The notes under the pieces were generated by a model that did not search any database, was not told where the DNA came from, and was given only the letters and a program-made list of their open reading frames with translations. Source: Candidatus Enterousia onthequi (GTDB taxonomy: Bacteria > Pseudomonadota > Alphaproteobacteria > Rs-D84). From it: 64,000 bases of DNA. A program made the position numbers and the translations under genes. Positions 6,233 to 55,173 of the stretch are shown one piece after another. Where the stretch lies: the NCBI GenBank assembly GCA_018064365.1, contig JAGHVJ010000006.1:2058-66057 (forward strand), read 5' to 3'. Every line of letters begins with the position of its first letter. The first letter of the stretch is position 1.

Positions 6233-6733
6233 ATGAAAAAGATTGTTTTATTTGGTTTGGTATGTTCTGTGGTTGCGTCAAATGCAAATGCTGGCTGGTT
6301 TGGTAATTTGTTCACAAAAAATGCAGAACCACAAACTTTATCCGAGGCATGTAATGCAGACGAAATCACATCTGTTTGTCCAGAAATGGTGTTGGGCGAA
6401 AAAACATTGACAGAATGTTTGTCTGAAAATGTTAAATCTTTATCAAAAAAATGTTCAAAATATGTGAAAAAATCAATCAAAGAAAATAAAGAATTGGTTT
6501 TGGAAAGTAAAGACGCTGCTGCAACTGCTGCTGGTGCAAAGGTTGCTGATGTAAAAACTGCGATTGCCGAGAAAAAGGTCGCTGCCGCAGAAGCAAAAAC
6601 TGCATTAAAAAATAAAAAGGCTGCATTAAAATCAGATGCAAAAATCGCAGGGCAAGAAATTAAAGAAACCGTTCAGACAATAAAGGCAGATGCAATTGAA
6701 ACAGGTAAATCTGTAAAGGCGATTGCAAAATAA
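6233..6733 (+). CDS. Secreted small protein with four Cys in the N-terminal half and an Ala/Lys-rich repetitive C-terminus
   Basis: Signal peptide MKKIVLFGLVCSVVASNANA. RBS AAGGACGGAAAAATG. The C-terminus has KxAxAxxKxA-type repeats. Confidence 0.6.
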   Translation: MKKIVLFGLVCSVVASNANAGWFGNLFTKNAEPQTLSEACNADEITSVCPEMVLGEKTLTECLSENVKSLSKKCSKYVKKSIKENKELVLESKDAAATAAGAKVADVKTAIAEKKVAAAEAKTALKNKKAALKSDAKIAGQEIKETVQTIKADAIETGKSVKAIAK

Positions 6734-6802
6734 AAAATAAAATTTATTTGTCATAATGCCCTGCGAAATTTTTATAAATTTTCGTGGGGTGTTTTTTTAC
6801 TC

Positions 6803-6832
6803 TTTACAAGGTTAAATTAAAAATGCTAGAAT
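6803..6832 (+). promoter_or_regulatory. Putative sigma70 promoter for the large Cys-rich protein A
   Basis: TTTACA, 18 nt spacer, TAGAAT. Confidence 0.4.
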
Positions 6833-6894
6833 AATCTTAAGCGAAGGTTTACACATAAAAAAATGGCTATTTTCTGCTGTTTTAGGAGAGTCTT

Positions 6895-9102
6895 ATGAAA
6901 AATAAAAAAATGACAGAGGTTTATAAAAACGCAGTTGGCACTGTTGTTTTATTGGTCAGTGGCTTACTTATGTGGTCGGTGTTTTCTGATATGAAGGCGT
7001 ATGGCGACCCTGTTGCGCCAGTGACACCAACCGCGCCGCGGGCAAATTCTGTACGAACGAACGCAACAACGCGTGCAACTGCAACGTCACGTGGAACTGT
7101 GGCGCGAACAACAACCTCTCGAAATACAGCCAGTCGCGCAGTGTCGGGTAATGCAGTGTCTGGCGCGGAACGAGGTACAAGTTCTCGCAGTGTTAGGACT
7201 CGTAGTGTGAGTGTGCGTTCCGCAAACGGGACTGTGAAAAATGTTCCATCGTCAAATCGTTCGGTTGTGTCCCGTACAGTTTCAGGTAATACAACGATGC
7301 GTGGTGTGTCTGCGCGTAATACAGCACGCAATGTGGTCGCGCGGACAGGTACAACATCTGCGCGGGTCAGTCTTGTTGGAAATGGTTTGCGTGCTTCTAA
7401 TAGTTCAGGGATTACTACTTCGTATCTAACGAATAAATTGTACACAGGCAATTATTCAAACATTATCGATTCGACAACAGGATTGATTTCTGCTGATGCA
7501 TACAGTGCATGTTTGGAAAGTTATTATACTTGTATGGATGAAATTTGTACTGCACGTAGCGATACCAAAGGACGTTGTTCTTGCGCCGGTCGTGCAACTA
7601 ATTTTTTAGAGGCTGAAACAGCATTGGAAAAGGCAAATGAAGAACTGATTCAATTGTCTGGTCAATTGGCTTTGTTGGTTTCTACCAAGGGTAAAGATGT
7701 CAGCGAGGCATTTAAATTGACTGATGCTGAAAAAGTTATGAATTGCGTTTCTTGGAAAGATTTAACCGCACAATACGGTACAAATTATTCCACCCCAGAG
7801 GTTCAATCTTGGTGTAATTTGCATGGTATGTATAATTCGTCAGATTGCGCAGAACCATCTTATTGTAAATCTTCTGGTAATAGTTTTGGTTTTGATATCA
7901 GCACTATAAATGGCTCGTCTTCTGATATTTTGGCGTCATTAAAAACATGGGCGGATGCCAAAGATTTGGCAAAACAATATACATCCAGTGATACAGATGA
8001 ATTGTTGTCAAATTATACAACAATCGCTGGTGTTGTAAACGGGTTGTCTGGAATAAATGAAACGGCGGATGTGTCTGCGGCTGCGTTAGATACATTGGCG
8101 AATAAATGGGGATACGAATTATTTGAATATGCACATAATAATGTTTGTGGTCGTGTTCTGGATTCGTGCTTTAACGGAATATACGAGGCATGCGGCACAC
8201 CGCCATCCGGGTCAGATTCTGCGGGTAATAAAATCGGCAAATGTGCAAATGGTGCATCAACCAGTTGTCCGTACAATTATAACAGTGCAATTTCTGTCAA
8301 AACATCTGGGAACGGTTCTGGCGAGGTTGCATTAAACGAACGTGGCGCAACCGGTTCAACAACATCGACATCAGCAACTTGTTTTGGTTATACATCTGCA
8401 AACGGTGACCCATATGCTTCTTTGCGTGGGCCTGTTGCGGATGCGCGTCGCAGTATTATGCAGAAATATTTGTTGGATGCAAATGCGGCTTGCGATACAT
8501 ATGGTACTGCGTTAAAGAACACTGCGCAAAATATCAATTATCAAAAAATTGCCGCAGAACAGGCTTTGCGTCAGAAACGTATGGAATTTTACACCGAAGA
8601 AGAAACCAAAATTACAAATGATGCTATCGCTGCAATTACAAACTTTAATAATTGCATAGATGAAATTTGGGATTGTTATAATACAAATGCAGACGAAGAA
8701 AATTGGTCAACTGCGCGTATTAAAACATACTGTGCCCAGGTTTCCAATGTTCCGCATTGTTATGAAACAATGATTTGTAATCCGACGATTGTCCAGTTTA
8801 ACAAAATCATAGATGAACCGGATACAAAAGGAAATTGTGACTTGAGTGCAAACGTTGAAGAAAACAACTGTCGTAACGTTGTGACATTGCAAGAAATATT
8901 AAATGGTACCGGGGTCAGCGGTATTGGTTATGTCGGAAATGATAACTTGAACCAAATATTGGCTGGTTTATTAAAGGCAGAATCTGCCGTCGTGCGTGAG
9001 GCTTGTTTGTTAAAGGCTCTTGGATGTGACGGGCAAGACAAAGATGATCAAACTTGCTTGCGTAACTTTGATAAACAAAAATATAAAGATGAAAATAAAT
9101 AA
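6895..9102 (+). CDS. Large secreted or membrane-anchored protein (paralog A). Arg/Ser/Thr/Val-rich low-complexity N-terminal region followed by a Cys-rich domain.
   Basis: N-terminal hydrophobic segment. ~120 aa of degenerate SRxxVxxT-type repeats. More than 30 Cys. Motif C..Y..CMD.IC......RCSC is shared with 9972..12182. Confidence 0.75.
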   Translation: MKNKKMTEVYKNAVGTVVLLVSGLLMWSVFSDMKAYGDPVAPVTPTAPRANSVRTNATTRATATSRGTVARTTTSRNTASRAVSGNAVSGAERGTSSRSVRTRSVSVRSANGTVKNVPSSNRSVVSRTVSGNTTMRGVSARNTARNVVARTGTTSARVSLVGNGLRASNSSGITTSYLTNKLYTGNYSNIIDSTTGLISADAYSACLESYYTCMDEICTARSDTKGRCSCAGRATNFLEAETALEKANEELIQLSGQLALLVSTKGKDVSEAFKLTDAEKVMNCVSWKDLTAQYGTNYSTPEVQSWCNLHGMYNSSDCAEPSYCKSSGNSFGFDISTINGSSSDILASLKTWADAKDLAKQYTSSDTDELLSNYTTIAGVVNGLSGINETADVSAAALDTLANKWGYELFEYAHNNVCGRVLDSCFNGIYEACGTPPSGSDSAGNKIGKCANGASTSCPYNYNSAISVKTSGNGSGEVALNERGATGSTTSTSATCFGYTSANGDPYASLRGPVADARRSIMQKYLLDANAACDTYGTALKNTAQNINYQKIAAEQALRQKRMEFYTEEETKITNDAIAAITNFNNCIDEIWDCYNTNADEENWSTARIKTYCAQVSNVPHCYETMICNPTIVQFNKIIDEPDTKGNCDLSANVEENNCRNVVTLQEILNGTGVSGIGYVGNDNLNQILAGLLKAESAVVREACLLKALGCDGQDKDDQTCLRNFDKQKYKDENK

Positions 9103-9108
9103 TTTATT

Positions 9109-9131
9109 GCCCGGCATTTGCCGGGTTTTTC
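9109..9131 (+). terminator. Rho-independent terminator
   Basis: GCCCGGCA-TT-TGCCGGG followed by a T-tract. Confidence 0.75.
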
Positions 9132-9204
9132 TTAAAAACCTATGTCTGGTGGTTGTCAAAGTTCAAAATATTCTCGCTTTTGTATAAAATATTAGACAAA
9201 ACAC

Positions 9205-9232
9205 TTGACTTGTTGCTAAAAAATGGTATCTT
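9205..9232 (+). promoter_or_regulatory. Putative promoter of rplU-rpmA
   Basis: TTGACT, 16 nt spacer, TGgTATCTT (extended -10). Confidence 0.4.
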
Positions 9233-9296
9233 TTGCATAAAGTTTTAGACAAAAGTGTCAAAACAAAACAAGAACTAACAGCGTAAAGGTTAAAAA

Positions 9297-9596
9297 ATGG
9301 CAAATTTTGCAATCTTTCAAACCGGTGGTAAACAATACCGTGTGCGCGCAGGCGACACAATCAAGGTTGAAAAAATCAACGCAGAATCTGATGTTGAATT
9401 TGACAAGGTCTTGATGTTGGACAACAAAATCGGCACTCCTTATGTCGATGGTGCACGTGTTATTGCAACGGTTGTCGAACAAAAACGCGATGACAAGGTT
9501 TTGGTTTTCAAGAAAAAACGTCGTCAAAACTATCGTCGCACACGTGGGCATCGTCAATACATTACTGTATTGAAAATCAAAGAGATTAAAGGCTAA
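9297..9596 (+). CDS. rplU: 50S ribosomal protein L21
   Basis: MANFAIFQTGGKQYRVRAGDTIKVEK is a canonical L21 sequence. Confidence 0.95.
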   Translation: MANFAIFQTGGKQYRVRAGDTIKVEKINAESDVEFDKVLMLDNKIGTPYVDGARVIATVVEQKRDDKVLVFKKKRRQNYRRTRGHRQYITVLKIKEIKG

Positions 9597-9608
9597 GGAG
9601 TTTAGACT

Positions 9609-9875
9609 ATGGCACACAAGAAAGCAGGTTCCGCTACATCGAACGGACGCGATTCTGCAGGACGCAGATTAGGTATCAAAAAATCTGGTGGCGCGCGTGT
9701 TATTCCTGGCAATATCATTATTCGCCAACGTGGCACAGCGGTTCATCCTGGATTAAATGTCGGTATGGGCAAAGACCACACGATATTTGCAAAAATTGCG
9801 GGTGTTGTTAAATTCAAGCGTGGCTTGAAAGACCGCAAAACTGTTTCTGTCGTTCCTGATGAAGAAGCAAAATAA
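9609..9875 (+). CDS. rpmA: 50S ribosomal protein L27
   Basis: [24 protein letters not shown] is a canonical L27 sequence. Confidence 0.95.
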
Positions 9876-9880
9876 AAAAA

Positions 9881-9906
9881 ATCGCCCACACGGGCGATTT
9901 TTTTGT
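9881..9906 (+). terminator. Rho-independent terminator after rpmA
   Basis: ATCGCCC-ACA-CGGGCGAT followed by TTTTTTT. Confidence 0.8.
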
Positions 9907-9971
9907 GCGATATATTTACATACTTTCAACTTTTTTCTGTTCCGTTTTTGTGATATAATTAAATCACAGAA

Positions 9972-12182
9972 ATGAGAAACATTTTTTTATGTTTTTTTAC
10001 GATGCTATTGTTTGCGCCGTCGGGATTGTTTGCGGCGACGGCATCTCGTGCTACAAATCATACGGAATCTGCATCAAATTCAACCCGTGTTGCGACATCT
10101 GAACGCTCTGGTGGAATGACGCGTCCATCAACAAATACGAATAATGGTTCGCGAACAGACAAGGTTGTATCCAGAACTGGGGATAAAACACCAAGGACAT
10201 CGGAATCTTCCGCGCGGTCAACGGTTACGCGCGGTGGCGAAATATCGGTGCGGACCGGTATTGCGCCACGAACACTGGAATCTAATCGTGTTGGAATTAA
10301 ACAACGGGGGGCTGTATCAAACCGTGTTTTGAATTCTGGAAATAATACTCTGGAACGTAATATCTCTGGTCGTGCTACAATATTATCGTCATCTCAAACC
10401 CAAGGTAAAAAAGTATCTGCGGCTGATGTTGCTGCGGCCCAAGAATTATTGGAACAAACGGCCAGTTTGAATAAATCATGCCAAGAACAATATAACGAAT
10501 GTATGGACCAATTCTGCGCGGTTGTTGATGCAAATCAAAAAAGATGCAGTTGTTCGGCGAATTTATCTAAATATTCCAGTGTCCAAGATGCTGTGACAAA
10601 CGCAAACAACGAATTAAATAGTGTTGCACAAAGAATTCGTTATGTTGGTTTGTCTGCCGATGAAATTCGTGCCATTATGTCCGAGACCGAGGCCGAGGCT
10701 GAATTAGATAACAATCGTGATGTGTCTGAAACACGCAGTATGTTGTCCAAAATAGAAGAGTTAATCCAAGACCCAACCACTCGTGTCAGTACAACTGGTG
10801 GTGATTCTGATTTTGGTTTGGATATTGATTTGGATTTTTCCAATACCGATGCAGACATTTTCAGTCTTGATTTTTTAAATGGTAATAACGATTCGATTTC
10901 CAGTAAACGTGGAACGGCTTTATATAACGCTGCGAAAAAACGTTGCAAAGCAATTTTGGACAACTGTACAGATGTTGGGGCAACATCAAACCAAATTACT
11001 GGCAATTATGACCTGGCAATTGACAAAGATTGTATCGCATATGAACAAGGTTTAAAGAAAATGAACGAAACCTTGCAATCTAATGTGCGCAGTGCTGGAT
11101 TGATGTTGCAAAAGGCACGTTTGGCGGTGTTGCAAAACAAAAACCAATATGATGCCAAGGGGTGTATTGGCGCGCTGGAAACATGTATGACTGATGATAT
11201 GGTGTGTGGTTCCGATTATGCGAAATGTCTGGACCCAACCAAAAAATACATAGATGAAAATGGCAAGGTTGTATTGGGCCAAGATATTACAAATATCACA
11301 GATTTTATGTCTGGATTTAATAGTGCCAATATCGATTCTAACAAGTTGTCCACGGCAACCAGTATAACAATTAGTGACAGTACCTGCAAATCCAATGACA
11401 ATAATGACGGGACGTGTGTTGTAAAATATTTGTTGGATAAAATCGGCACTGGTGCAACTGTCAAAGATGGCGGATTGTGTCGTGCAGTTTTGGATAAATG
11501 CCAACAATATACATATAATTTATCAGGAAATAAATATAATCCGTACAATGATGTTGTTGTAAATTATATTCAACGCGCAATGGTGAATATTAAATCATCG
11601 CAACAACAAATTATTTCTGATTATGCATCAACCTGTATGACGGATGTTGCTGCATGCTATAATCAACAGGTAACCCAGGTAAATTCTTGGTCGTCCGTGG
11701 CGTCTGTATCCAGTATTCGTGGTGTGATGACGGGGGCGTGTCGTAATGTTGCATTGACATGTGCGTATGCAGTATTTGCAAATATGTGCACCACAGGTGA
11801 ACAAAATGCAATAAATTGGGTGCTGCAAGATAGCGATACCGCAGTCAATAGTAGTTCTTGCGTTCCATGTGATATTGAGCATCCATCACAATGCATAGAA
11901 GGCATTTCTGAAATATTCTACCAGTCTTTGTTATGTCCAGAAAATTCAACATATCAAACGACGGCTGGTGTGCCATCGAATCGTACAATCGAAGGTTATG
12001 TAAATACTCAATGCAAATGTAATTTGGGTTACACTTCATTTAATGGTGCATGCTTGACATCATGTGCAAATAATGAATATCGCAATGAATACGGCACATG
12101 CGCAAAATGTGACGGCTCTCTTGACAGTGTCAGTGATGGCAAAGAACATGCCACATGCACACCCGCATCCAGTGGTTCCTAA
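9972..12182 (+). CDS. Large secreted protein (paralog B of 6895..9102). Arg/Ser/Thr-rich low-complexity region followed by Cys-rich domains, including EGF-like Cys spacing at the C-terminus.
   Basis: Signal peptide MLLFAPSGLFAATASRA. C.EQYNECMDQFC......RCSC aligns with paralog A. C-terminal CKCNLGYTSFNGACLTSCANNEY...CAKCDG. Confidence 0.75.
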   Translation: MRNIFLCFFTMLLFAPSGLFAATASRATNHTESASNSTRVATSERSGGMTRPSTNTNNGSRTDKVVSRTGDKTPRTSESSARSTVTRGGEISVRTGIAPRTLESNRVGIKQRGAVSNRVLNSGNNTLERNISGRATILSSSQTQGKKVSAADVAAAQELLEQTASLNKSCQEQYNECMDQFCAVVDANQKRCSCSANLSKYSSVQDAVTNANNELNSVAQRIRYVGLSADEIRAIMSETEAEAELDNNRDVSETRSMLSKIEELIQDPTTRVSTTGGDSDFGLDIDLDFSNTDADIFSLDFLNGNNDSISSKRGTALYNAAKKRCKAILDNCTDVGATSNQITGNYDLAIDKDCIAYEQGLKKMNETLQSNVRSAGLMLQKARLAVLQNKNQYDAKGCIGALETCMTDDMVCGSDYAKCLDPTKKYIDENGKVVLGQDITNITDFMSGFNSANIDSNKLSTATSITISDSTCKSNDNNDGTCVVKYLLDKIGTGATVKDGGLCRAVLDKCQQYTYNLSGNKYNPYNDVVVNYIQRAMVNIKSSQQQIISDYASTCMTDVAACYNQQVTQVNSWSSVASVSSIRGVMTGACRNVALTCAYAVFANMCTTGEQNAINWVLQDSDTAVNSSSCVPCDIEHPSQCIEGISEIFYQSLLCPENSTYQTTAGVPSNRTIEGYVNTQCKCNLGYTSFNGACLTSCANNEYRNEYGTCAKCDGSLDSVSDGKEHATCTPASSGS

Positions 12183-12908: not shown

Positions 12909-15011
12909 TTGTATTATAATAAAGCCGTGAAATTAAATCTAGAAAATCTTAATCCTGAACAATTACGTGCCGTCCAAAAAACAGATGGCCCTGTTTTGGT
13001 GTTGGCGGGTGCGGGAACTGGAAAAACACGTGTTTTGACTACGCGCATTGGTTATATTTTAGAACAAAAATTGGCGTTTCCGTGGCAAATTTTGGCACTG
13101 ACTTTTACTAACAAGGCCGCAAATGAAATGAAATCCAGAATTGATTCAATGTCTGACGGTGAATTTATTGCCCGTGACATTTGGTGTGGCACATTTCACT
13201 CTATATGTTTGCGGATATTGCGTTCGAATTACGCAACTGTTGGATTGCGACCAGATTTTTTGATTTATGGCGAAGACGACCAAAAATCTGTTGTTAAAAA
13301 GGTTTTGAACGACCTGAATATTACAACTACAAAAAAGCCATCAGAATACATCGAAGATTTTTCCAGGATAAAGGACCGTGGTTTAACCCAAACACCGTCC
13401 ACAGACCGAATTTTTAACACGTATAACGATGAATTGCGTCGTCTAGGTGCGGTTGATTTCGGCGATATAATTTTATGTGTTTTGAATTTGTTTGAACAAA
13501 ATCCTGCGATTTTAGAGCGTTATCAAAAACAATTCAAATATATCTTGGTCGATGAATTCCAAGATACCAATGTCGCCCAGATGCAGTTGTTAAAATATTT
13601 AACACGTGGTAATGACTGTCCGAATATTTGTTGTGTTGGTGATGACGACCAATCTATTTACTCTTGGCGTGGTGCAGAAATAAAAAATATTCTAGATTTT
13701 GAAAAAACATATCCTGGCACTACTGTGATTCGTTTGGAAACAAATTATCGCAGTACAGGAAATATCTTGGGGGCTGCAAATTCATTGATACATCATAATG
13801 ATGATAGGTTGGGCAAAGATTTACACACGGTTGCAAACGGTGATGACGGTGAAAAAATATATGTGTTCACTTTATCAACCGATTTAGACGAGGCGAAGTT
13901 TATCGCCGACGCAATTATTAAAAATGGCCCGACATATAATGATAAAACAATTTTAATTCGTTCTGGGGCGTTATCTCGTTTGTTCGAAGAAGAATTTGCG
14001 CGTCGTCAAATTCCATATCGTTTAATTGGCGCAACCAAATTCTATGACCGTATGGAAATTCGTGATGTGATTGCGTATATTCGATTACTGGTGCATCCGT
14101 TTGATGATATGTCTTTTTTGCGTGTTATTGGAAAACCTCGGCGTGGTTTTGGGCCATCTGCAATTGAAAAAATGCGTGCGGCAGGCGATAATTTAATGGC
14201 TGGATTGCGTGCGTATTCGTTCCGTGGCAAACAACAAGATACCGCAAACGAGTTTTTATCAGTATTTGATTTTGATTGGGAAAATATGCCACCCCAGGAT
14301 GCTGTTAAAAAATTATTAGATTCATCTGGATACATAAAAATGTGGCAAGAATCCAAAGATGTTGATGCGCATGACCGTATAAACAATATTCACGAATTGG
14401 TAAATTCTGTTGTTGCAAAATACGATTCTTTGCATGATTTTCTGGAACAGGCGGCATTAATGATGACGGATGATAATGATGACCCAGATATATTAAACAA
14501 TAATGCCGTGAACATTATGACGATACACGCGGCCAAAGGATTAGAATTTGATAACGTATTCCTACCCGCTGTCGAAGAGGGTGTTTTTCCAAATGAAAAA
14601 TCAATCCAAGAAGGTTCTATCCAAGAAGAACGCAGACTTGCCTATGTCGCAATAACGCGTGCACGAAAATTTGTTGTTATAACTAATGCGATATCGCGCG
14701 TTATGTATGGCGAACGAAAATATAATGCTCCCAGCCGTTTTATCAGTGAAATAGATTCTTCATTTTTGGTGTTTGGTGATGATGTCGCACGTCCCACCAC
14801 ACGCCCGCAACCACATCACTATACGAATCAAACTTATGAACATAAAAAAAAGTTTGTTGCAGCGCCTCGTAAAACATTGGTTGGCCGTATGGCGCGTCAC
14901 AGTGAATACGGCACAGGTGTTATTATCGAAGAAGGAACCGGAATTTTAACAATCGCATTTGGGACGCGTGGAATTAAAAAAATTGCGCGTGATTTTGTGA
15001 CGGTTTTATAA
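12909..15011 (+). CDS. uvrD: UvrD/Rep/PcrA-family ATP-dependent DNA helicase
   Basis: LNPEQLRAV..AGAGTGKT (Walker A), DEFQDTN, TNYRS and TIHAAKGLEF motifs. TTG or GTG start. Confidence 0.9.
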   Translation: MYYNKAVKLNLENLNPEQLRAVQKTDGPVLVLAGAGTGKTRVLTTRIGYILEQKLAFPWQILALTFTNKAANEMKSRIDSMSDGEFIARDIWCGTFHSICLRILRSNYATVGLRPDFLIYGEDDQKSVVKKVLNDLNITTTKKPSEYIEDFSRIKDRGLTQTPSTDRIFNTYNDELRRLGAVDFGDIILCVLNLFEQNPAILERYQKQFKYILVDEFQDTNVAQMQLLKYLTRGNDCPNICCVGDDDQSIYSWRGAEIKNILDFEKTYPGTTVIRLETNYRSTGNILGAANSLIHHNDDRLGKDLHTVANGDDGEKIYVFTLSTDLDEAKFIADAIIKNGPTYNDKTILIRSGALSRLFEEEFARRQIPYRLIGATKFYDRMEIRDVIAYIRLLVHPFDDMSFLRVIGKPRRGFGPSAIEKMRAAGDNLMAGLRAYSFRGKQQDTANEFLSVFDFDWENMPPQDAVKKLLDSSGYIKMWQESKDVDAHDRINNIHELVNSVVAKYDSLHDFLEQAALMMTDDNDDPDILNNNAVNIMTIHAAKGLEFDNVFLPAVEEGVFPNEKSIQEGSIQEERRLAYVAITRARKFVVITNAISRVMYGERKYNAPSRFISEIDSSFLVFGDDVARPTTRPQPHHYTNQTYEHKKKFVAAPRKTLVGRMARHSEYGTGVIIEEGTGILTIAFGTRGIKKIARDFVTVL

Positions 15012-16292
15012 ATTGTTTTTTACAATATCGCGTGCTTGTTTCCAACGTTTTTTTGTAAGTTCCCACAATTTTTCTGTGTCTTTCTTTACTTTATCGCCCA
15101 GCCCAGATTCGATTTTTCCACCCCAATCAGAAGCCAATTTTTGTGATTTTTCCGCCATATAGCAAACCAACAACAGCGATAAAATCAACAATATTGCGCC
15201 GTCAAATCCGAACCCCGTCAACAGTTGTCCTGTATTTGGATTTACAACAAAAGTCAATAAAGATACAGATACACCTGTTGCCACCGCCAGACATACAAAA
15301 TAAATTGCTGCTTTGACAATGCGTGTAATTTGGGTTTCTAATTTTTCTGCTTTGAATATATCTAAAAAAGAATTAAATATATCCCCAGCAACACCCTTGT
15401 ACTGTGTTTTTGCGGTTGTTTCTGCAATCGCAGTAAACGGCAGCAATAACAAACTTAAAAATATATCTGCGATAACACCCAAGGAAATAAACAAATATTT
15501 CCAAATGTTTTTCAATGCCAAATATGTTATGTATAATCCAATAGCAGACGTGAATAAACTTGCGCCCACACCGGCAACAACCCATTTCCAACCAATTCCA
15601 ATAATCGTTGTAAAAAATGCAGACATTTGTGTTGGTATGCACAATAACCCAGCCGCAGAATCTGCGGTGATTTGCAGGTTTTCTGGTGCGCTGGTTGCGG
15701 CATATTGACGTATTGCTTCGCACGTGTCTGGCAGTTTATATCCCACAACACCAGTGATAGCATCCCATATTGTTGTAGCGATATATGTCCCTGCCGATAT
15801 AATTGGAACCATAATCGTAGTAAAAGCATGGGCAATTCCGAACTTTAATACAATCAACCACGCAGAAATAATCAAACCTTTTTTTAATATGTCTTCTACG
15901 GCTTTTTTTGCATCTCCACCAGAACCGATTAAATGATACGCTTCAAAAGCAATCAAAAACGCGTATGCAATCAACATAAACATAATTGCAAATGTTGCCA
16001 ATGAATTGTCCAATGCTACACCGACACGCGCCATACCGCCCATAAACGCCAGCCCTAATTTTGCCTCTATCGGAACATAACTGTGGGCAACAGTTGTGGC
16101 GGTTGGACCAAAGTTATTTAATTCGTCTACGATTCGACCGGTAACCAAAGAACGATTTTCTTCTGTTGCCCAAGTCCCATAATCACCAATATCCCCAGAC
16201 CCGTATGTTGTATCTGCAAACCCAGGCACTGCGATAAATATTGCAAATATCACAATTAAAATTTTTCGTAAAAAATCACGTGTTTTCATCAT
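15006..16292 (-). CDS. Polytopic membrane protein, member 1 of a 5-gene paralogous family, VirB6/TrbL-like by architecture (putative)
   Basis: Signal or TM at the N-terminus, 6 or more TM helices and a Gly-rich sequence. Similar to the neighbouring ORFs (..IVKAAIYFV.. vs ..VIKAAISVV..). Confidence 0.45.
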   Translation of the reverse strand: MMKTRDFLRKILIVIFAIFIAVPGFADTTYGSGDIGDYGTWATEENRSLVTGRIVDELNNFGPTATTVAHSYVPIEAKLGLAFMGGMARVGVALDNSLATFAIMFMLIAYAFLIAFEAYHLIGSGGDAKKAVEDILKKGLIISAWLIVLKFGIAHAFTTIMVPIISAGTYIATTIWDAITGVVGYKLPDTCEAIRQYAATSAPENLQITADSAAGLLCIPTQMSAFFTTIIGIGWKWVVAGVGASLFTSAIGLYITYLALKNIWKYLFISLGVIADIFLSLLLLPFTAIAETTAKTQYKGVAGDIFNSFLDIFKAEKLETQITRIVKAAIYFVCLAVATGVSVSLLTFVVNPNTGQLLTGFGFDGAILLILSLLLVCYMAEKSQKLASDWGGKIESGLGDKVKKDTEKLWELTKKRWKQARDIVKNNL

Positions 16293-17785
16293 GATATAAA
16301 TCCATTGTCATGCAATCTTTTTACCGCACCATCAAACCATTTGCGTGGTGCATGCCATGCCTTTTGCCCTAAATCGTGGGCCCATTTTCCGATGTCAAAT
16401 TGTTCGCCCGTTCCAACATCTGATTCTTCGCCTGGGATTGGCAATTTAACTTTGCCCGCAGGTAACAAAGCATCAACTTTTGGACTTAATACATAATAAT
16501 ATAACAAGAATAATCCAGCCATCAAAATCAAGAAAGACCACCCATCAGCCAAGAAATCAAATGCGCCTGGGTGTTCGGCTTCGATAATTTGTTTTTGTTG
16601 TTCAAAACAAGGTTTAAATAAATCTGCATCGACCAAACCGTCCGCATCTTTGGATTGTGCCTCGCATACAGAAAATGCGTTCATCACGGATTCTGCCGCC
16701 GGTGTTGTGTTTTGTGTGATTTGTGTTCCGAATAATGGTGGTAACACAGATGTATAACCGTCCACAGGACCTGGGAATGTCGCGTCCGCAGCATAGAAAA
16801 TAATCGCAAATAATAATGCAATTTTTAACGAAATAGATACAACTGAAATTGCGGCCTTGATAACCGTTTCTAATGATTTGCGGAATAATCCTGATGCTGC
16901 TTTCCATACTTTTTCATATGCCAACGCAGCAATTAAAATGGGCAAGAATATAATAACGAAAACGACTTTGAACAAAATCGAGAAAATTTGAAAGAATAAA
17001 TCAAATCCAATAACTAAAAATGCCAGAACCAAGAACAGCCCCGCAATCCATGTCAGCATACCGCCACCCAATCCCAGCCAAGCATAATTCATCAGTGCGA
17101 ATCCACCGGCGGCGCCTGCCAGCATAACAGAATATAAATTTCCAATAACGCACATAAATGAACCAGATACCGCGGCCATTGCACCAGATAATTGGGTCGC
17201 ACCCAAAATAACATTACAATCAGTTGCAGAATTTACACCCGTTGCTACCATTGATAGTGTAGAACCAATATATAAAATTGGCGAAATTAAAATTTCAGAA
17301 ATTACTTTCAAAGATGCAGTGCTATCCAAACTCAATACACCAATCGCAACACCTGCAATCATAATGCGCAACCCCAATTTCCATACTGGTTCAAACCAAG
17401 TTTGAAAATCTATATTATTTGCATTTGCGGTATATTCTGCATTTTTCTTTGATTTTTCCCAAACATATTTTATCGCAGAAATAAACATAAAAATCGCAAA
17501 TCCGGCACCCATTAAAATCCACAAATTGTTCACAATCCCAGACCAAAACATTTCAGATGCCACACCCAACATATCTAATAATTCAACGACATATTTTCCC
17601 AAAAATACAGTGCCGATATTTTCAATCCCGTTATCTGCGCCGATTGCGTGTATAAATCCGTCAACAGATGTATAGGTCAACGCAGAACCACCAATAGATG
17701 AAGATAAATACCAAATGCCCAACCCCAAGGCAACCACTATACCCAGTACTTTTAATCCCAAAGAAATCAATTTAAATTTCAGCAT
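16289..17785 (-). CDS. Polytopic membrane protein, paralog 2 (VirB6/TrbL-like, putative)
   Basis: Multi-TM. 4-nt overlap with the downstream paralog (operon). Confidence 0.45.
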   Translation of the reverse strand: MLKFKLISLGLKVLGIVVALGLGIWYLSSSIGGSALTYTSVDGFIHAIGADNGIENIGTVFLGKYVVELLDMLGVASEMFWSGIVNNLWILMGAGFAIFMFISAIKYVWEKSKKNAEYTANANNIDFQTWFEPVWKLGLRIMIAGVAIGVLSLDSTASLKVISEILISPILYIGSTLSMVATGVNSATDCNVILGATQLSGAMAAVSGSFMCVIGNLYSVMLAGAAGGFALMNYAWLGLGGGMLTWIAGLFLVLAFLVIGFDLFFQIFSILFKVVFVIIFLPILIAALAYEKVWKAASGLFRKSLETVIKAAISVVSISLKIALLFAIIFYAADATFPGPVDGYTSVLPPLFGTQITQNTTPAAESVMNAFSVCEAQSKDADGLVDADLFKPCFEQQKQIIEAEHPGAFDFLADGWSFLILMAGLFLLYYYVLSPKVDALLPAGKVKLPIPGEESDVGTGEQFDIGKWAHDLGQKAWHAPRKWFDGAVKRLHDNGFIS

Positions 17786-17798
17786 AATGATTTACCTT

Positions 17799-19004
17799 TT
17801 ACGACCTCATTTTCTCGATAATAATTTTAGCGGGTTTTTTGATATAGTTATTAGCAAATCCTTTTGTTAAATTCATTAAACTATCGCCAAATTCTTTGCC
17901 AACCGCATTGTCGCTGGCTTGGACTTGGAACATGCCCAAAACAGTCTTTGTAATATTTGGAATATTACTATAAATAAATCCTAGTACATAAACCAAGACC
18001 ACAACACTAATCAGTGTTAAATCGTTTATGCCCGTTTGATTTAAATCTGTTTCAAATACAGTCCCATCCATAATTGCAGCCAACAAAGTATCAAAGTTAT
18101 TTAGATTGCCGTCTGGGTCTGCAAAGAATTTCACAATAATCACCAAAATCACAGTGTATGTAATTATCGCCACCCCCAAAGATATTATAGCACCAACCAT
18201 ATTTTTTATCTGTTCAACACCGACCCCTTTGCCCAGGGATTTTATCCAACTCAACCAATATGGAACATCTGCTGATTCCTTAAATGCAGTGGTAACCAAA
18301 GATAACGGAAAGAAAAATGCAAACATCGCCATGGCGATAATAACATCTATGAAATAACACAAAAATTGGAAAAACATTTTGAAAAACGCCCAAAACAAAT
18401 ACACCCCGATAAATGCCAATAATAAATGTTTTATAAATGCCCCAATCCCCATAAACATAGCCCATGAAAACCCAGTGTCTAACATTGCGACGCCCAGTTT
18501 CATAAACGATTGAAACAAAGTAAGTGTGACTTTTGCGGTATTGATAATAGAATCACGTAATTCTTGTCTGAATATCCCACCAGAATCATCCATCGGTTGT
18601 GGGGTGTATTCAATGTGTTCTTCAATTTGTTCTGGGGTCAATTGTATCATAGCAGATGCATAGTTTTGTGTCACAATAGCCACCGGTTCAAAAGCCACCT
18701 GGGTTATAAAACGTGGCAACATAACCCCCATGCCCAAAAAAGTCAAAGCAAACAAAGAATTTATAAAAACAGGCCGTATAGATTTGTTAAACCAACCATC
18801 TTGAAAGCCTTCCTTCATGTTTTTCCAAACCGCACCAAAAATATAAAACGCAAATATTGCACAGAATAAAATTGTGCAAATAAGAACGAATTTAGGATAT
18901 GCCGCTGCAGCCGCATCTGACACAATTTGAAACATGCGGTCAAATATCGGACAAGACCAACATTGCGCAGTATTATCGATAAAGGATTGTGCCAAATTAT
19001 TCAT
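17799..19004 (-). CDS. Polytopic membrane protein, paralog 3 (VirB6/TrbL-like, putative)
   Basis: The N-terminal motif CWSCPIF before the first TM is shared with 20347..21669 (CWSCQIF). Confidence 0.45.
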   Translation of the reverse strand: MNNLAQSFIDNTAQCWSCPIFDRMFQIVSDAAAAAYPKFVLICTILFCAIFAFYIFGAVWKNMKEGFQDGWFNKSIRPVFINSLFALTFLGMGVMLPRFITQVAFEPVAIVTQNYASAMIQLTPEQIEEHIEYTPQPMDDSGGIFRQELRDSIINTAKVTLTLFQSFMKLGVAMLDTGFSWAMFMGIGAFIKHLLLAFIGVYLFWAFFKMFFQFLCYFIDVIIAMAMFAFFFPLSLVTTAFKESADVPYWLSWIKSLGKGVGVEQIKNMVGAIISLGVAIITYTVILVIIVKFFADPDGNLNNFDTLLAAIMDGTVFETDLNQTGINDLTLISVVVLVYVLGFIYSNIPNITKTVLGMFQVQASDNAVGKEFGDSLMNLTKGFANNYIKKPAKIIIEKMRS

Positions 19005-19006
19005 AA

Positions 19007-20284
19007 TTATCCCTTAAAAAATTTAACAACATTTTTCACCTTGCCAGGCACAGCCTTGGCCATGCCCCATGTTGTTTTTGCATCGCCTTTGACCTGGTTA
19101 TACAATGCGGTTGCGTCTTTGCCGACATATCCTGTCAATTTTTCGCGTGTGATTTCAAATATTTTATTCATTAAAAAGAAAGTCAATAAACAAGATAACC
19201 ATAAAACAGAATGCCCGCCAAATCCACTGGATAAAGAATCCATGCTTGGTAAATTAGAATACGCAACGCCACCCGCTGCTGTGACGAACATACGACTGTT
19301 CCATTGGAACAAAGCGCGCACCAATGCCAAATTTACACACAATATAAATGCACATGCAATCATTGTCACAACCATTTGTTTTAATGCAGTTATAATGCCA
19401 GAAAAAGCAGGCCATATATCAAACCAACTGTCGCTTTTTTTTGCAACCCATGCGGCCACACCAAAAGGATATAAAATCAAAGCCATACCAAAATTAAATA
19501 TCGTTTGAATAATCAACAAAGCCATAAATAAATTGCACCCCGTAAATGTTATAATCAACAAAATACCAGAAATAATATTCATAAAACCTTGACCGCTGTT
19601 GTGCGACATTAATGTGGTTAAAGTACGCAGTCCATTAGACAAATAAGTAAGCCCACGTTTTATTACAGTATTGTTTGCATGAGACAAAACATGCACAGGT
19701 TGAATTAAATATTCACAAGATTCTGTGTCCAACCAACCCTGTGCCATTAAATTTGATGGACATTGCACCGCGCGCATATCTTCTAAATTTACATCAGATG
19801 CAGCCTTCATAATTTCGGTAGTAAACAAAGAACCAAAACTTAAAAAAGGATTAATCAAATGTTTGGTCATAAAATCTGGCCGTAATGGCAACAAAAGTAT
19901 GGCCGCAACCAATACGCGTATTGCAGGTTTTGCAACATTGTTTGCGATTTTCATTCCGTCAGTATTCTCGATAGAATCCCCAGATTTGAATCCAAATGTG
20001 GACATCCAATATTTAGGAACAAATAATTTAATCAAATACAACGCGACATAAAATACAAAAAATCCCCATACTAATAAATAAATTATACCGTCGTGATTTT
20101 GCCCAACGAAATAAGCATAAGTCCCATTTGCAACAAACATAAATGCATCCAGTACAATAGGCACTAATTTTGAAATGTCCAAAGAATCAACATCAATCAG
20201 ACCCCATCCTGCCAACGCCACACTGGGCACGAATGAGCAGAACAATAAAGTGCATCCAATTAAAAATTTTTTAATACAATTCAT
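19007..20284 (-). CDS. Polytopic membrane protein, paralog 4 (VirB6/TrbL-like, putative)
   Basis: Signal peptide. Motif IRVLVAAILLLPLRP matches IRVLFVGALLLVPLPR in 20347..21669. Confidence 0.45.
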   Translation of the reverse strand: MNCIKKFLIGCTLLFCSFVPSVALAGWGLIDVDSLDISKLVPIVLDAFMFVANGTYAYFVGQNHDGIIYLLVWGFFVFYVALYLIKLFVPKYWMSTFGFKSGDSIENTDGMKIANNVAKPAIRVLVAAILLLPLRPDFMTKHLINPFLSFGSLFTTEIMKAASDVNLEDMRAVQCPSNLMAQGWLDTESCEYLIQPVHVLSHANNTVIKRGLTYLSNGLRTLTTLMSHNSGQGFMNIISGILLIITFTGCNLFMALLIIQTIFNFGMALILYPFGVAAWVAKKSDSWFDIWPAFSGIITALKQMVVTMIACAFILCVNLALVRALFQWNSRMFVTAAGGVAYSNLPSMDSLSSGFGGHSVLWLSCLLTFFLMNKIFEITREKLTGYVGKDATALYNQVKGDAKTTWGMAKAVPGKVKNVVKFFKG

Positions 20285-20346
20285 CTCTTATAATATTATT
20301 ATTGTAATTATAACATAAATCGATAAAATTATGTTATAATTAAAAT

Positions 20347-21669
20347 ATGAATTGGCTAAAAAAATTTTGGATAGTTTTTACATCTTTCTTGCCGTTTTCA
20401 GCAGGGGCTTTTTCGCCACTTTTAATTGGTGGAATTGCGTTTGGCGGTGGAATAATTGGGGTTTCTATTTGGCGCAATGTGTCCCCTGTAAATATGTCTG
20501 ACGCATTATCTTTTTTTTCCAGTTGTTGGTCATGTCAAATTTTTTCAGATGTTGTCGCAACAATGTCAAATATTATTCCTGTGACCTATAAATCTTTGGG
20601 TGGTATAATAATACCATTTGCAATTGTTTTGACAGCAGTATGGTTTGCGTGGCAATTATTGACATTGTTTATCACGCCCGGTCAAGATAAACAGATAAAT
20701 AATTTAGGGTGGAGTCTTGCAGGACAATGGGGAACTCATGTTATTCGTGTTTTATTTGTAGGGGCATTGTTGCTTGTTCCATTACCGCGAATGATTTCAT
20801 CTGTTGTACTGGAACCTGTGTTTAATATTGGTTTGTCTATGAATTATACAATGTCTGTGGCTGATGCTCGCCAGAACTATGCAAATTGCATAATTGCAAC
20901 TGCGGTCTCGGATGTGTCTGCAACCCGGACAGATACTGCAAATCCTGGTATAAATGCATTTTCACCGCGATTTCGTCATAACTTAACATGTCAAATTGCA
21001 AATATACATCAAATGACAGGTTTGGGAATGACAATTGGTTGGACAATGTTAAATATGGCGTTTAACTATGATTATATGCATAAATTGATGTGGGGAATAC
21101 CGATTTTTCCCAATGTGCCATTGATATTGACGGGGCTTTTGATATTGGCGCTGTATTTATCTGCATTATTGCCGATACCATTATATTTCTTGGAAATATT
21201 TATCAAATTATCTATTGATTTTGTTTTGTTGCCATTGACACTGTTATCGTGGATATTCAAAGGTTGGAAAATATTTCCGTCTGGCAAGGGAAATATAAAA
21301 CAAATCATAGATGATGTTATTTCTGGTGTTTTAGGTTTGGCAATGACGGGCATATTTATAACATTTTCAATAATGTTGTTAAATGCGGCTTTTGGTAATT
21401 GGAAAGGTGCATCTGCATTACAAACTGCGATTACCCAAAACGATTCGAAAATTTTAATAGATTCGTTAATGTCCACCACAGGCAGTAAATCTCTGATAAC
21501 CATAATATTGATGGGGATATTTATGACTATGTTTATGGTGATGATACCTGCATTGATAAAGTCGTTATTTAACATAACAGTATCTGATAAATACTATCAA
21601 ACCGCAAAAAAAGATATAAATTTATTGTGGAATGGCGCGAAAAAGTGGTGGTCTGCCGCAAAAAAATAA
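20347..21669 (+). CDS. Polytopic membrane protein, paralog 5, divergently transcribed (VirB6/TrbL-like, putative)
   Basis: Shares the CWSCQIF and IRVLF..LLLVPLPR motifs with the paralogs on the opposite strand. Confidence 0.45.
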   Translation: MNWLKKFWIVFTSFLPFSAGAFSPLLIGGIAFGGGIIGVSIWRNVSPVNMSDALSFFSSCWSCQIFSDVVATMSNIIPVTYKSLGGIIIPFAIVLTAVWFAWQLLTLFITPGQDKQINNLGWSLAGQWGTHVIRVLFVGALLLVPLPRMISSVVLEPVFNIGLSMNYTMSVADARQNYANCIIATAVSDVSATRTDTANPGINAFSPRFRHNLTCQIANIHQMTGLGMTIGWTMLNMAFNYDYMHKLMWGIPIFPNVPLILTGLLILALYLSALLPIPLYFLEIFIKLSIDFVLLPLTLLSWIFKGWKIFPSGKGNIKQIIDDVISGVLGLAMTGIFITFSIMLLNAAFGNWKGASALQTAITQNDSKILIDSLMSTTGSKSLITIILMGIFMTMFMVMIPALIKSLFNITVSDKYYQTAKKDINLLWNGAKKWWSAAKK

Positions 21670-41618: not shown

Positions 41619-42581
41619 TTGTCTAAAAAACACATTTTTTTAAGAGTTTTTTCGAGAATCACAATTTTGGTGTGTGTTTTTTGTGCATTTTTCATCTCGC
41701 CTGTGTTCGCCACTTTGCCGGCCGGTTATACCGAGTTGGAATATATCGAATCCACCGGTACACAGTATATTGATACGGGACAAATGTTTTTGTTTGGTGA
41801 TGAGTTTTATTTTGAGTATATGCAAATTAAAAGTGTATCAACGGAAAACAAAGGTTATGGTGCGGGTGTTGATCTTTCTAGTAACATTACTTGTGGAGGT
41901 CGTAAAAAGGGTGACATTGTAGGGATGTATACGTTAGCTAGCAATACTTATTACAGTCCAACATTGAGTTATCAAGATTCTTTAAACAAACATTATACCG
42001 AACAATGGAAAATATCAGAAGGAACTTTAGTTTCTGTTTTAACAGAGGTTGGTACAGATAATATATATACTTTTTCTGCTGCCAGAACTGGTTTTAATTC
42101 AAGTTATACATCTGGTAATACTGTTTATTTGTTTAGAGATCATAGTTCGCTATATGATTACTATAGCGCGACAAGATTGTATCACACGTGGTTACGTCGT
42201 CAAAATGGTACGTATGTCTTTGATTTTATCCCTGCTAAACGTGATTCCGATAATGAAATTGGTATGTATGATACTGTGACTAATACTTTCTTTACTAATA
42301 AGGGGACTGGTGATTTTATTGCTGGGCCGGTGGCAGAAATCAAAATTGCAACAACAAAAATGGTTGATGAAGAATTTAAGGCGGCGGAGGACCAGTTGGC
42401 GGCGACGGTTCAAACAATTGAAAGTGTTGTATCTCGCACGATTGCCCAAACCGAACAAATCCAGATATTACAAGACACCAAACAAACGCGCCCCGACGAA
42501 TCATGTCCTGCAAACACGAAATGCTTACTGGTTCAAGACGAAGACGGCACCCCACATTGGTACCCAATCATCGAACCATAA
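41619..42581 (+). CDS. Secreted hypothetical protein (TTG start). Tyr/Thr/Ser-rich with a C-terminal coiled coil.
   Basis: Signal peptide ..ISPVFA. N-terminal LPAGYTELEYIESTGTQYIDTG motif. Confidence 0.55.
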   Translation: MSKKHIFLRVFSRITILVCVFCAFFISPVFATLPAGYTELEYIESTGTQYIDTGQMFLFGDEFYFEYMQIKSVSTENKGYGAGVDLSSNITCGGRKKGDIVGMYTLASNTYYSPTLSYQDSLNKHYTEQWKISEGTLVSVLTEVGTDNIYTFSAARTGFNSSYTSGNTVYLFRDHSSLYDYYSATRLYHTWLRRQNGTYVFDFIPAKRDSDNEIGMYDTVTNTFFTNKGTGDFIAGPVAEIKIATTKMVDEEFKAAEDQLAATVQTIESVVSRTIAQTEQIQILQDTKQTRPDESCPANTKCLLVQDEDGTPHWYPIIEP

Positions 42582-46754: not shown

Positions 46755-46778
46755 GCCGGCATTTGCCGGCATTTTTTT
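46755..46778. terminator. Bidirectional terminator GCCGGC-ATTT-GCCGGC followed by a T-tract
   Basis: Perfect 6-bp GC stem. A/T tracts on both sides. Confidence 0.8.
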
Positions 46779-47796
46779 AAAACGCAACCTTTAACGCGGT
46801 GGACAAGAACGGTGTTTTTGTTGTTAAACCAACCGAAGTCCACAATTCCATATTTTCACTATATTTATACCGGAAAGAGCCAATCACAGTATGGTCATAA
46901 TATTGTGGCAAATCACGATGCCAAATCCCAGTTTTTGAATACAGATATGACAGAGATAAAGAATAGTTCAAAATATCATAACTGACACCACTGCCCACAG
47001 ATATTCCATCACTTGGCGCGCCAACTGGATTTTTATCATATATCGCAACGGCCGAAGTTCCAAAAATCCAACTGTTATATTGTATATTAAACCCAACCGA
47101 ACCTTGTGCGCGCCAATCTGCGGTAACTTCATCTAAATAAGACGCAGGACTAAATCCGTCTAAATTATTCATAAAAGACGCGCCCAACGATAACGCGGAT
47201 TTTATTTTGCCATTTGGAAATCTAAATTTCACACCGCCGTCAACAGCATAATCATAATCTTCACCAAATGCCGCCACAGACACACCATATTGTCCGACAT
47301 TTGTTGGAACACTAACCAAATTTACACGTGGCGCATCATGCCCAGAATTCGCATGTGTATTTGGAATAACATTTCCGTCTGGCGAAATTCTTTTATAAAA
47401 CAAAGGATTGTGATTCACGCGCAATCCACCGACATCTGGAATTCCAACACTCAACTTGTGTGTCACAGAATGAGTTAAACCAATTTCCACACGCCCTAAA
47501 TCTTGAACTTCATACAAAGCAAATGCATCATGCGCCCAATCATGTTCGGATAACGCTTCTTCGTCCCATTCGTACACCAAACCAAACGTTTGACCACGTG
47601 CCACAGCATAGTTGTATTGTGCGCGCAATTCAAAATCACCTAAGAATAGAGTGTCGTGAAAATCCGGTTCTATAACACCGGCTTGGCCAGATACATTAAA
47701 TTTTAACGCGCTGCGTCCATAGTTATATTGCAAAGCATAACCAGACTCAACAAAAACCAAACCAAATATCAATCCCCGTAACAAGTGTTTTTTCAT
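46777..47796 (-). CDS. Outer-membrane beta-barrel protein (porin/OmpA-like)
   Basis: Signal peptide, alternating amphipathic strands and a C-terminal ..LKVAF (terminal Phe). Confidence 0.6.
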   Translation of the reverse strand: MKKHLLRGLIFGLVFVESGYALQYNYGRSALKFNVSGQAGVIEPDFHDTLFLGDFELRAQYNYAVARGQTFGLVYEWDEEALSEHDWAHDAFALYEVQDLGRVEIGLTHSVTHKLSVGIPDVGGLRVNHNPLFYKRISPDGNVIPNTHANSGHDAPRVNLVSVPTNVGQYGVSVAAFGEDYDYAVDGGVKFRFPNGKIKSALSLGASFMNNLDGFSPASYLDEVTADWRAQGSVGFNIQYNSWIFGTSAVAIYDKNPVGAPSDGISVGSGVSYDILNYSLSLSYLYSKTGIWHRDLPQYYDHTVIGSFRYKYSENMELWTSVGLTTKTPFLSTALKVAF

Positions 47797-53596: not shown

Positions 53597-53631
53597 AATT
53601 ATCTATCCATTTGTTATAACAAATTGCAATA

Positions 53632-55149: not shown

Positions 55150-55173
55150 TGCATCCTTCCTTTTTTTACTTTT

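Follow-up and report, generated by a model that had tools for sequence, protein, structure and literature searches.

A lineage-restricted family of probable Sec-exported, disulphide-rich proteins flanking rplU-rpmA in Candidatus Enterousia onthequi and other Rs-D84 bacteria

Two genes on the same strand of contig JAGHVJ010000006.1 of Candidatus Enterousia onthequi enclose the ribosomal genes rplU and rpmA and encode large cysteine-rich proteins, here called A and B. They belong to a new, lineage-restricted protein family that is core to Rs-D84, and this assignment is firmly supported; the family is predicted to be exported by Sec and rich in disulphides. The window, i.e., the whole stretch of DNA analysed, is 64,000 nt long, and coordinates are window positions unless another locus is named. 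A preliminary description had placed the two open reading frames (ORFs) on either side of a ribosomal operon; their coordinates proved exact, and rplU and rpmA were verified by Pfam. The locus contains the following features.

6233..6733, plus strand: small exported protein of 166 amino acids (aa), with a signal peptide, four mature Cys and an Ala/Lys-rich helical tail (ORF).
6803..6832, plus strand: promoter-like site 5' of A, TTTACA-18-TAGAAT, with an extended -10 TG (consensus scan, a weak type of evidence).
6895..9102, plus strand: protein A, A-type, 735 aa, 26 Cys (ORF; more than 1,200 homologues).
9109-9126 (or to 9136), plus strand: intrinsic-terminator-like hairpin and T-tract directly 3' of A.
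9297..9596, plus strand: rplU, ribosomal protein L21 (Pfam PF00829 L21p, E 6e-36).
9609..9875, plus strand: rpmA, ribosomal protein L27 (Pfam PF01016 L27, E 1e-35).
9875-9904, no strand assigned: A-run/stem/T-run hairpin 3' of rpmA, resembling a bidirectional terminator.
9972..12182, plus strand: protein B, B-type, 736 aa, 33 Cys, 32 of them in the mature protein (ORF; more than 1,000 homologues).

Because of the hairpins after A and rpmA, the genes A, rplU-rpmA and B probably form three separate transcription units. The earlier statement that A and B each possess their own promoter and terminator is correct only in part: A has a promoter-like site and a good terminator, and no terminator is detectable 3' of B, where 4 nt separate that gene from the convergent dnaQ. 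Promoter-like sites are in modest excess in the region (26 against 18.7 +/- 4.5 in shuffled sequence).

The two proteins are built to one plan.

6895..7005, plus strand: A residues 1-37, Lys-rich n-region and hydrophobic helix, a signal peptide or signal anchor.
7012..7419, plus strand: A residues 40-175, basic T/S/R/V/A-rich region, predicted to be disordered (predicted local distance difference test, pLDDT, <50), its length and sequence varying among species.
7492..7752, plus strand: A residues 200-286, module common to A and B, Cx6Cx4Cx9CxC followed by a helix.
7753..9099, plus strand: A residues 287-735, acidic, mainly helical (predicted) Cys-rich body with recurring Cx6-8C pairs, the last ~65 residues variable.
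9972..10037, plus strand: B residues 1-22, typical Sec-type signal peptide (...LLFAPSGLFA-A, the hyphen marking the putative cleavage site; heuristic call).
10038..10421, plus strand: B residues 23-150, basic S/T/R/G/N-rich region, predicted to be disordered.
10449..10721, plus strand: B residues 160-250, module common to A and B.
10722..11891, plus strand: B residues 251-640, acidic helical (predicted) body with serial Cx6C motifs.
11892..12113, plus strand: B residues 641-714, C-terminal small-strand Cys-knot module with an EGF_2-like pattern, CKCNLGYTSFNGAC.

Each protein starts with a hydrophobic N-terminus, consistent with the signal or anchor noticed at first reading. On a heuristic reading, the hydrophobic N-terminus, an AxA-like site and the even number of cysteines would fit a Sec-type signal peptide and folding outside the cytoplasm. 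The signal region of A is unusually conserved (64% mean identity; invariant K11, N12, A13, G15 and T16, then D38 and P39), and because of this its N-terminal helix might be an uncleaved anchor. The low-complexity tails that follow (~130 aa) are indeed basic, with net charges of +20 in A, where acidic residues are almost absent, and +13 in B, and their arginines are regularly spaced (lag 5, z=5.1 in A; lag 6, z=3.6, or about every 6-7 residues, in B). The tails differ among species (33-41% identity, 112-177 aa). The word repeats, formerly applied to them, does not hold at the level of DNA, as a repeat check ruled out tandem repeats. The bodies have net charges of -25 and -26 and are predicted to be mostly helical; serial motifs such as C398-x6-C405-x6-C412-x6-C419 of B place cysteines in i,i+7 pairs. 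AlphaFold2 models made from alignments of 30-31 sequences are poor (mean pLDDT 53 and 56), with the tails modelled as disordered.

Two details of the preliminary description required correction. A domain with more than 30 Cys had been ascribed to both proteins, but A has 26 in all; B has 33, one of which lies inside the signal peptide. The epidermal growth factor (EGF)-like Cys spacing at the end of B is present as a pattern, the EGF_2-type signature C-x-C-x2-[GP]-[FYW]-x4-8-C matching residues 681-694 (CKCNLGYTSFNGAC), although this pattern is short and non-specific, and Pfam EGF models (e.g., PF00008, PF07974, PF12662) match neither B nor longer orthologues.

Judged by their sequences, A and B are related: they have one architecture in common, and a module near their N-termini is homologous. 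In BLASTP, the alignment of the two proteins covers only the N-terminal 236 aa (E 8e-10). Profile-profile comparison by hhalign, based on alignments of 30 and 31 members that are low in diversity (Neff about 2), confines the similarity to A200-281 and B164-244 (probability 97%, E 8e-11), and permissive settings did not extend the homology past this module. The module comprises ~85 aa and is the most conserved part of both proteins, with 84% (A) and 83% (B) mean pairwise identity within the family; the remaining likeness lies in overall layout. Both methods confirm the motif C.E.Y..CMD..C......RCSC previously recognised as shared. The further claim, that several later Cys clusters align, is not supported, as nothing outside the module aligns even in the profile-profile comparison. 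The designation of A and B as a paralogous pair is thus correct for ~85 aa and the layout, and does not extend to the whole length.

Searches for known families were negative throughout. No family matched A or B in Pfam (hmmscan) or NCBIfam (0 families), both at E of 1 or below, and PHROGs gave no usable match; neither PDB sequences, searched with the family profiles and the module profile, nor PDB folds, searched with the low-confidence models, yielded a match. A search with B by tblastn against 72,556 plasmids returned nothing, and a mobile-element origin was rejected, there being no plasmid or phage-family matches. Among individual candidates, the TPS domain of TpsA proteins (Haemagg_act, PF05860) has no Pfam match, and the Cys-rich helical content would be atypical for TpsA; the Sel1 repeat of Sel1-like and Helicobacter cysteine-rich proteins (PF08238) has no Pfam match either. 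A literature search on the motifs and the lineage retrieved no account of these proteins, and the motif is printed in no paper found. The initial impression that no housekeeping family is involved is therefore upheld, A and B falling outside NCBIfam and every other family searched. At the level of the sequence family they appear to be entirely new, while the broader kind, disulphide-rich bacterial envelope or surface proteins, is already known.

The homologues of A and B, collected from 5.8 billion proteins, contain no Pfam domains except for occasional C-terminal add-ons, and every named one is a "hypothetical protein". A is encoded in 221 species-representative genomes of GTDB, from which 80 loci were retrieved. 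Nearly all A-bearing genomes are metagenome-assembled genomes (MAGs) of rumen, faecal or gut origin that carry the label Alphaproteobacteria or Candidatus Enterousia, the hosts being cattle, sheep, horse, chicken, human and others. One locus titled "Bacteroides fragilis" (L059, CAVGNU010000001.1) carries an Enterousia-type PPDK-A-rplU-rpmA-B-dnaQ-uvrD-M1-M2 arrangement; this bin is probably mislabelled or contaminated. A hidden Markov model of the module, run against 1.84 billion cluster representatives, found 466 matches in proteins of 650-2,338 aa, with the module always situated 150-300 aa from the N-terminus. Among the best 150 of these matches, every full-length one is either A-type (22) or B-type (114).

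Most of the 80 loci retain the gene order PPDK-ABC-small-A-rplU-rpmA-B-dnaQ-uvrD-M1..M5. The ABC exporter encoded upstream, a half-transporter of the generic ABCB/Sav1866/MsbA-like kind, was set aside as uninformative. In locus L081, from a much more distant MAG (54% GC), two B-type module proteins flank an inverted rplU-rpmA. Because both are B-type, this arrangement points to the A-type as a branch derived from an old duplicate. The upstream protein of L081 (755 aa) was considered as a bridge between the A and B families and rejected, as it is a B-type paralogue.

Some genomes contain more than two family members. The Enterousia assembly JAZTWM01 has an A-type gene on the contig of L061 and a B-type paralogue of 2,179 aa on another contig (L090), and in a close relative (L087; rpoB 88% identical) a paralogue of 2,094 aa lies a few kb 3' of rpoC. 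The giant B-type paralogues (2,094-2,338 aa, 68-121 Cys) were seen in Enterousia-type genomes, away from the rplU-rpmA locus, at the following positions.

L090, 10001-16540: giant B-type paralogue.
L087, 10001-16285: giant B-type paralogue.
L082, 10001-17017: giant B-type paralogue.

Their additional 1,000-1,600 aa consist of Cys/Gly/Thr-rich mini-modules with PDQPEP-type linkers. As the window stops inside rpoB, a third copy may be located just past its end.

Twenty-two cysteines are invariant in the A alignment, and 24 are invariant and 4 near-invariant in the B alignment. Mature Cys counts are even in 107/119 A-type proteins, 114/117 B-type proteins and 107/118 diverse representatives, with counts from 16 to 120. 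Binomial p-values for this parity overstate its significance, since the sequences are related, but the counts shift by two across many distinct values. Cysteines are thus acquired and lost two at a time, a pattern that marks disulphide bonding outside the cytoplasm.

Rates of divergence were compared with those of neighbouring genes. In more distant species, A and B are about 52-57% identical to the window proteins over their whole length; in the same species, UvrD is about 60% identical, DnaQ about 80%, and M1 and M2 about 40%. Within the A and B alignments, mean pairwise identity is 63-77% for the bodies and 83-84% for the module. Because this conservation is close to that of UvrD, or for the globular parts equal to or above it, and far above that of M1 and M2, A and B do not look like arms-race effectors, and the comparison indicates purifying selection of the housekeeping kind, as expected for a core function. 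The Cys-knot module occurs in 1-7 copies among B orthologues and is present on a few A-type proteins, and one A orthologue carries three Listeria-Bacteroides repeats and an InlB B-repeat. By analogy, such C-terminal accretion is typically how exposed adhesin stalks evolve.

Our preferred reading, which we hold tentatively and, with all its parts taken jointly, at slightly less than even confidence, is that A and B are two anciently diverged members of one undescribed family and act as Sec-exported, disulphide-stapled proteins of the envelope or surface with a structural and attachment role. Both proteins would be exported by Sec and oxidised outside the cytoplasm, yielding helical bundles stapled by 13-16 disulphides, with i,i+7 Cys pairs on one face of a helix. 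Retention in or on the envelope might be achieved by the conserved N-terminal helix in the case of A, and in both by the polycationic tail binding anionic envelope polymers, and the variable C-terminal modules would face outward. A and B would then be abundant, protease-resistant structural and attachment components on the surface of a partner-dependent bacterium. The conserved module would serve as a docking site for a common partner, which may be the other protein or an envelope-spanning export or anchoring machine. A secretin-based machine like the type II secretion system (T2SS) or type IV pilus (T4P) is the candidate suggested by the neighbourhoods of distant relatives; the alternative would be the type IV secretion system (T4SS) of the window, represented by VirB10/TrbI (825 aa), VirB9/CagX and VirB8 at 51116-55947 on the minus strand.

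In the loci concerned, a distant B-type gene is directly preceded by Secretin (L083, 99-4419) or by PilO-x-T2SSE-T2SSF on the same strand (L085, 5192-12184). A third distant B-type gene has TolC-MacA-MacB immediately upstream (L081, 5109-12391). MacA/TolC genes also occur a few kb from A in five of the 80 loci, with opposite-strand genes in between, and we judged the MacAB-TolC link weak, direct adjacency being found in L081 only. The operon beside a B-type gene in L084 is not a clear T2SS. Genes for dTDP-sugar isomerase/epimerase (rmlC/rmlD-like) were observed near B-type genes in two unrelated lineages (L081, 17347-18959; L084, 8459-9815); they might point to glycosylation of the Ser/Thr/Arg-rich tails, or be a coincidence.

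Several points weigh against the preferred reading. The localisation of A and B is entirely inferred, and beside neither gene does the window offer an evident passage through the outer membrane. By tblastn, secretin and T2SS/T4P genes were not found near A or B in the window or in the 80 Enterousia loci; only two distant lineages provide the secretin and T2SS neighbourhoods, and the genes involved there are B-type paralogues, not the window genes. The linkage to rplU-rpmA may merely reflect the frozen gene order of small genomes, and terminators part the three units. DsbA/DsbB or VKOR were not found, a genome-wide search not being possible, and Enterousia are anaerobes without a respiratory chain (PMC12306168). 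Given the poor AlphaFold models, "helical bundle" would hold at the level of secondary structure only, and the lack of fold matches is a weak negative. Finally, proteins exposed at the surface are not usually so strongly conserved, and a periplasmic role would agree with this conservation just as well.

Such a periplasmic role is the foremost alternative, which we regard as somewhat unlikely. A and B would be structural subunits or scaffolds, either of an envelope-spanning machine (an rvh-like T4SS or one like T2SS/T4P) or of the envelope within the periplasm. The basic tail would attach to peptidoglycan or membrane, and the module would dock to the machine. Their housekeeping-like conservation and the conserved, anchor-like N-terminal helix of A fit this, as do the T4SS genes of the window, the M1-M5 array 3 kb downstream (within about 2 kb of A in L063, L064 and L074), and the adjacency of distant B-type genes to secretin, T2SSE and T2SSF genes. 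However, one would sooner expect adhesin-type C-terminal repeats, and giants reaching 2,338 aa, among exposed proteins, A and B bear no similarity to known T4SS, T2SS or T4P subunits, and adjacency is weak evidence in genomes below 1 Mb with frozen synteny.

The M array deserves mention in this context. M1-M5 (15006-21669) are five tandem polytopic paralogues of 400-498 aa with 6-7 predicted transmembrane segments; their paralogy is distant (M3 and M5, E 2e-11; M1 and M4, E 1e-6), the array is syntenic across Enterousia loci, and no match was found in Pfam, NCBIfam or PDB. The arrangement resembles the tandem VirB6 array of the rvh T4SS of Rickettsiales; homology to VirB6 could not be shown. 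A weak second VirB8-like gene (35722-36411, plus strand) is followed by two exported proteins without a family match (to 37928).

A bolder version of the surface model, in which A-type and B-type proteins and the giants, cross-linked by disulphides, build an extracellular structure for attachment or feeding that leaves the cell by way of a secretin-type or type IV machine, is conceivable but unlikely.

We consider it quite improbable that A and B are secreted effectors or toxins directed at a eukaryotic host or a protist, using EGF-like and low-complexity modules for mimicry. The preliminary description leaned this way in proposing surface or secreted effector-type proteins, possibly interacting with eukaryotes, and the view can call upon the export signals of both proteins, the EGF_2-like C-terminal Cys pattern, the host-associated life of these bacteria and the presence of a T4SS. 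Against it stand the properties of the genes, which are near-universal in the group, kept in synteny and slowly evolving across many gut hosts; eukaryote-like Pfam domains are absent, and the EGF pattern is short and non-specific, as stated above. Classical T4SS effectors, moreover, are not known to be Sec-dependent.

There is little room for the view that A and B are extremely divergent members of a known family which the searches missed. Low-confidence models do weaken fold searches, and alignments of such low diversity weaken profiles, but Pfam, NCBIfam, PHROGs and PDB profile searches stayed empty even at E of 1 or below, and the best 150 matches of the 1.84-billion-representative scan contained only A-type and B-type proteins. 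Least probable of all is that A and B are extracytoplasmic redox or metal-handling proteins with cysteines as Zn or Fe-S ligands or as redox thiols, since the very high Cys content in an anaerobe without a respiratory chain to drive DsbB and the regular Cx6C spacing are outweighed by the strongly even parity over 16-120 Cys, by signals of the Sec rather than the Tat type, and by the lack of CxxC or CxxCH motifs and of any metalloprotein family match.

For the preferred reading, that of disulphide-stapled envelope or surface proteins, the nearest functional analogies appear to be chlamydial OmcB/OmcA and proteins secreted by T2SS or type IVb pilus machines, in the sense of working alike and not as family assignments. 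Chlamydial OmcB (PF03504) is a large envelope protein, rich in Cys and basic at its N-terminus, and its gene neighbours that of a small Cys protein, OmcA. A and B would be comparable as large, putatively Sec-exported proteins whose Cys number exceeds 20 and whose N-terminal region is basic, and would be core envelope components of a small-genome, host-dependent bacterium; A has a syntenic exported neighbour with 4 Cys, though one without a canonical lipobox. The role that may be proposed by analogy is a disulphide-stabilised envelope with the basic tail on anionic polymers. However, A and B are predicted to be helical and have no sequence or profile similarity to the chlamydial proteins (Chlam_OMP6, PF03504, no match in Pfam hmmscan at E of 1 or below), and Enterousia, which keeps peptidoglycan genes (PMC12306168 and the window), has no need to replace its wall.

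TcpF of Vibrio cholerae and CofJ of enterotoxigenic Escherichia coli are secreted through T2SS/type IVb pilus machines, and would offer a parallel in Sec export, periplasmic disulphide folding, a flexible N-terminal recognition segment, and genes located beside those for a secretin, an ATPase and a platform protein, as seen for the distant B-type genes of L083 and L085. They are not homologous to A and B, which are 3-4 times larger and have no T2SS/T4P genes nearby in the window. The C-terminus of B, with C-x-C-x2-G-Y-x6-C, short strands and 1-7 tandem copies, recalls EGF-like or cysteine-knot adhesin stalks, but it has no Pfam EGF match and makes up only about 10% of the protein. TraN (PF06986) is a Cys-rich outer-membrane protein stabilising mating pairs in F-type T4SSs. 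It is likewise large and exported, has about 22 conserved Cys, occurs in T4SS-bearing bacteria and acts in cell-cell contact. In contrast to TraN, A and B are predicted to be helical, the T4SS of the window is P-type/VirB-like, and the TraN profile gave no match in A or B at E of 1 or below.

The small exported protein encoded upstream of A was correctly described at the outset: its signal peptide, four mature cysteines (C-x8-C-x12-C-x11-C) and Ala/Lys-rich tail were verified. It is conserved, with homologues in 81 clusters (150-168 aa, every one hypothetical), and precedes A in many loci. Pfam gave only a sub-threshold match to Cys_rich_FGFR (E 0.039), and nothing usable was found in Pfam, NCBIfam or PHROGs.

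Elsewhere in the window, LpxD, BamB, SurA, YidC and a PBP5-type carboxypeptidase (DacA) with a SPOR domain identify the organism as a diderm. The protein of 339 aa encoded at 46777-47796 (minus strand) has a signal peptide and the C-terminus ...ALKVAF and lacks Cys; it is probably an outer-membrane beta-barrel or porin, although Pfam gives no match. Two lineage-specific proteins without a family match are encoded at 41619-42581 and 20-877; one is exported and has 320 aa, the other, of 285 aa, has 6 Cys, a coiled-coil C-terminus and only a weak match to DUF6261.

The genus Enterousia belongs to the order Rs-D84 and has genomes of 0.75-1.0 Mb (PMC12306168). These bacteria lack most biosynthesis, respiration and standard transporters for sugars, amino acids and peptides, and an obligate symbiotic or parasitic life is suspected for Enterousia, many of whose membrane proteins are unexplained (PMC12306168). 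Rs-D84 is widespread in human and livestock guts. With A and B, a protein family and a conserved module that are new to the databases are defined, and the two proteins raise the question of how an anaerobe without a respiratory chain oxidises 13-16 disulphides per protein. Because they are conserved like core housekeeping genes and have no relative outside the group, they are leading candidates for the machinery, of envelope or cell contact, by which the Rs-D84 lifestyle is defined. Should A-type and B-type proteins and the giants indeed build an extracellular attachment or feeding structure, it would be a new bacterial cell-contact organelle for latching onto partner cells, and a key to the obligate-partner lifestyle of Rs-D84.

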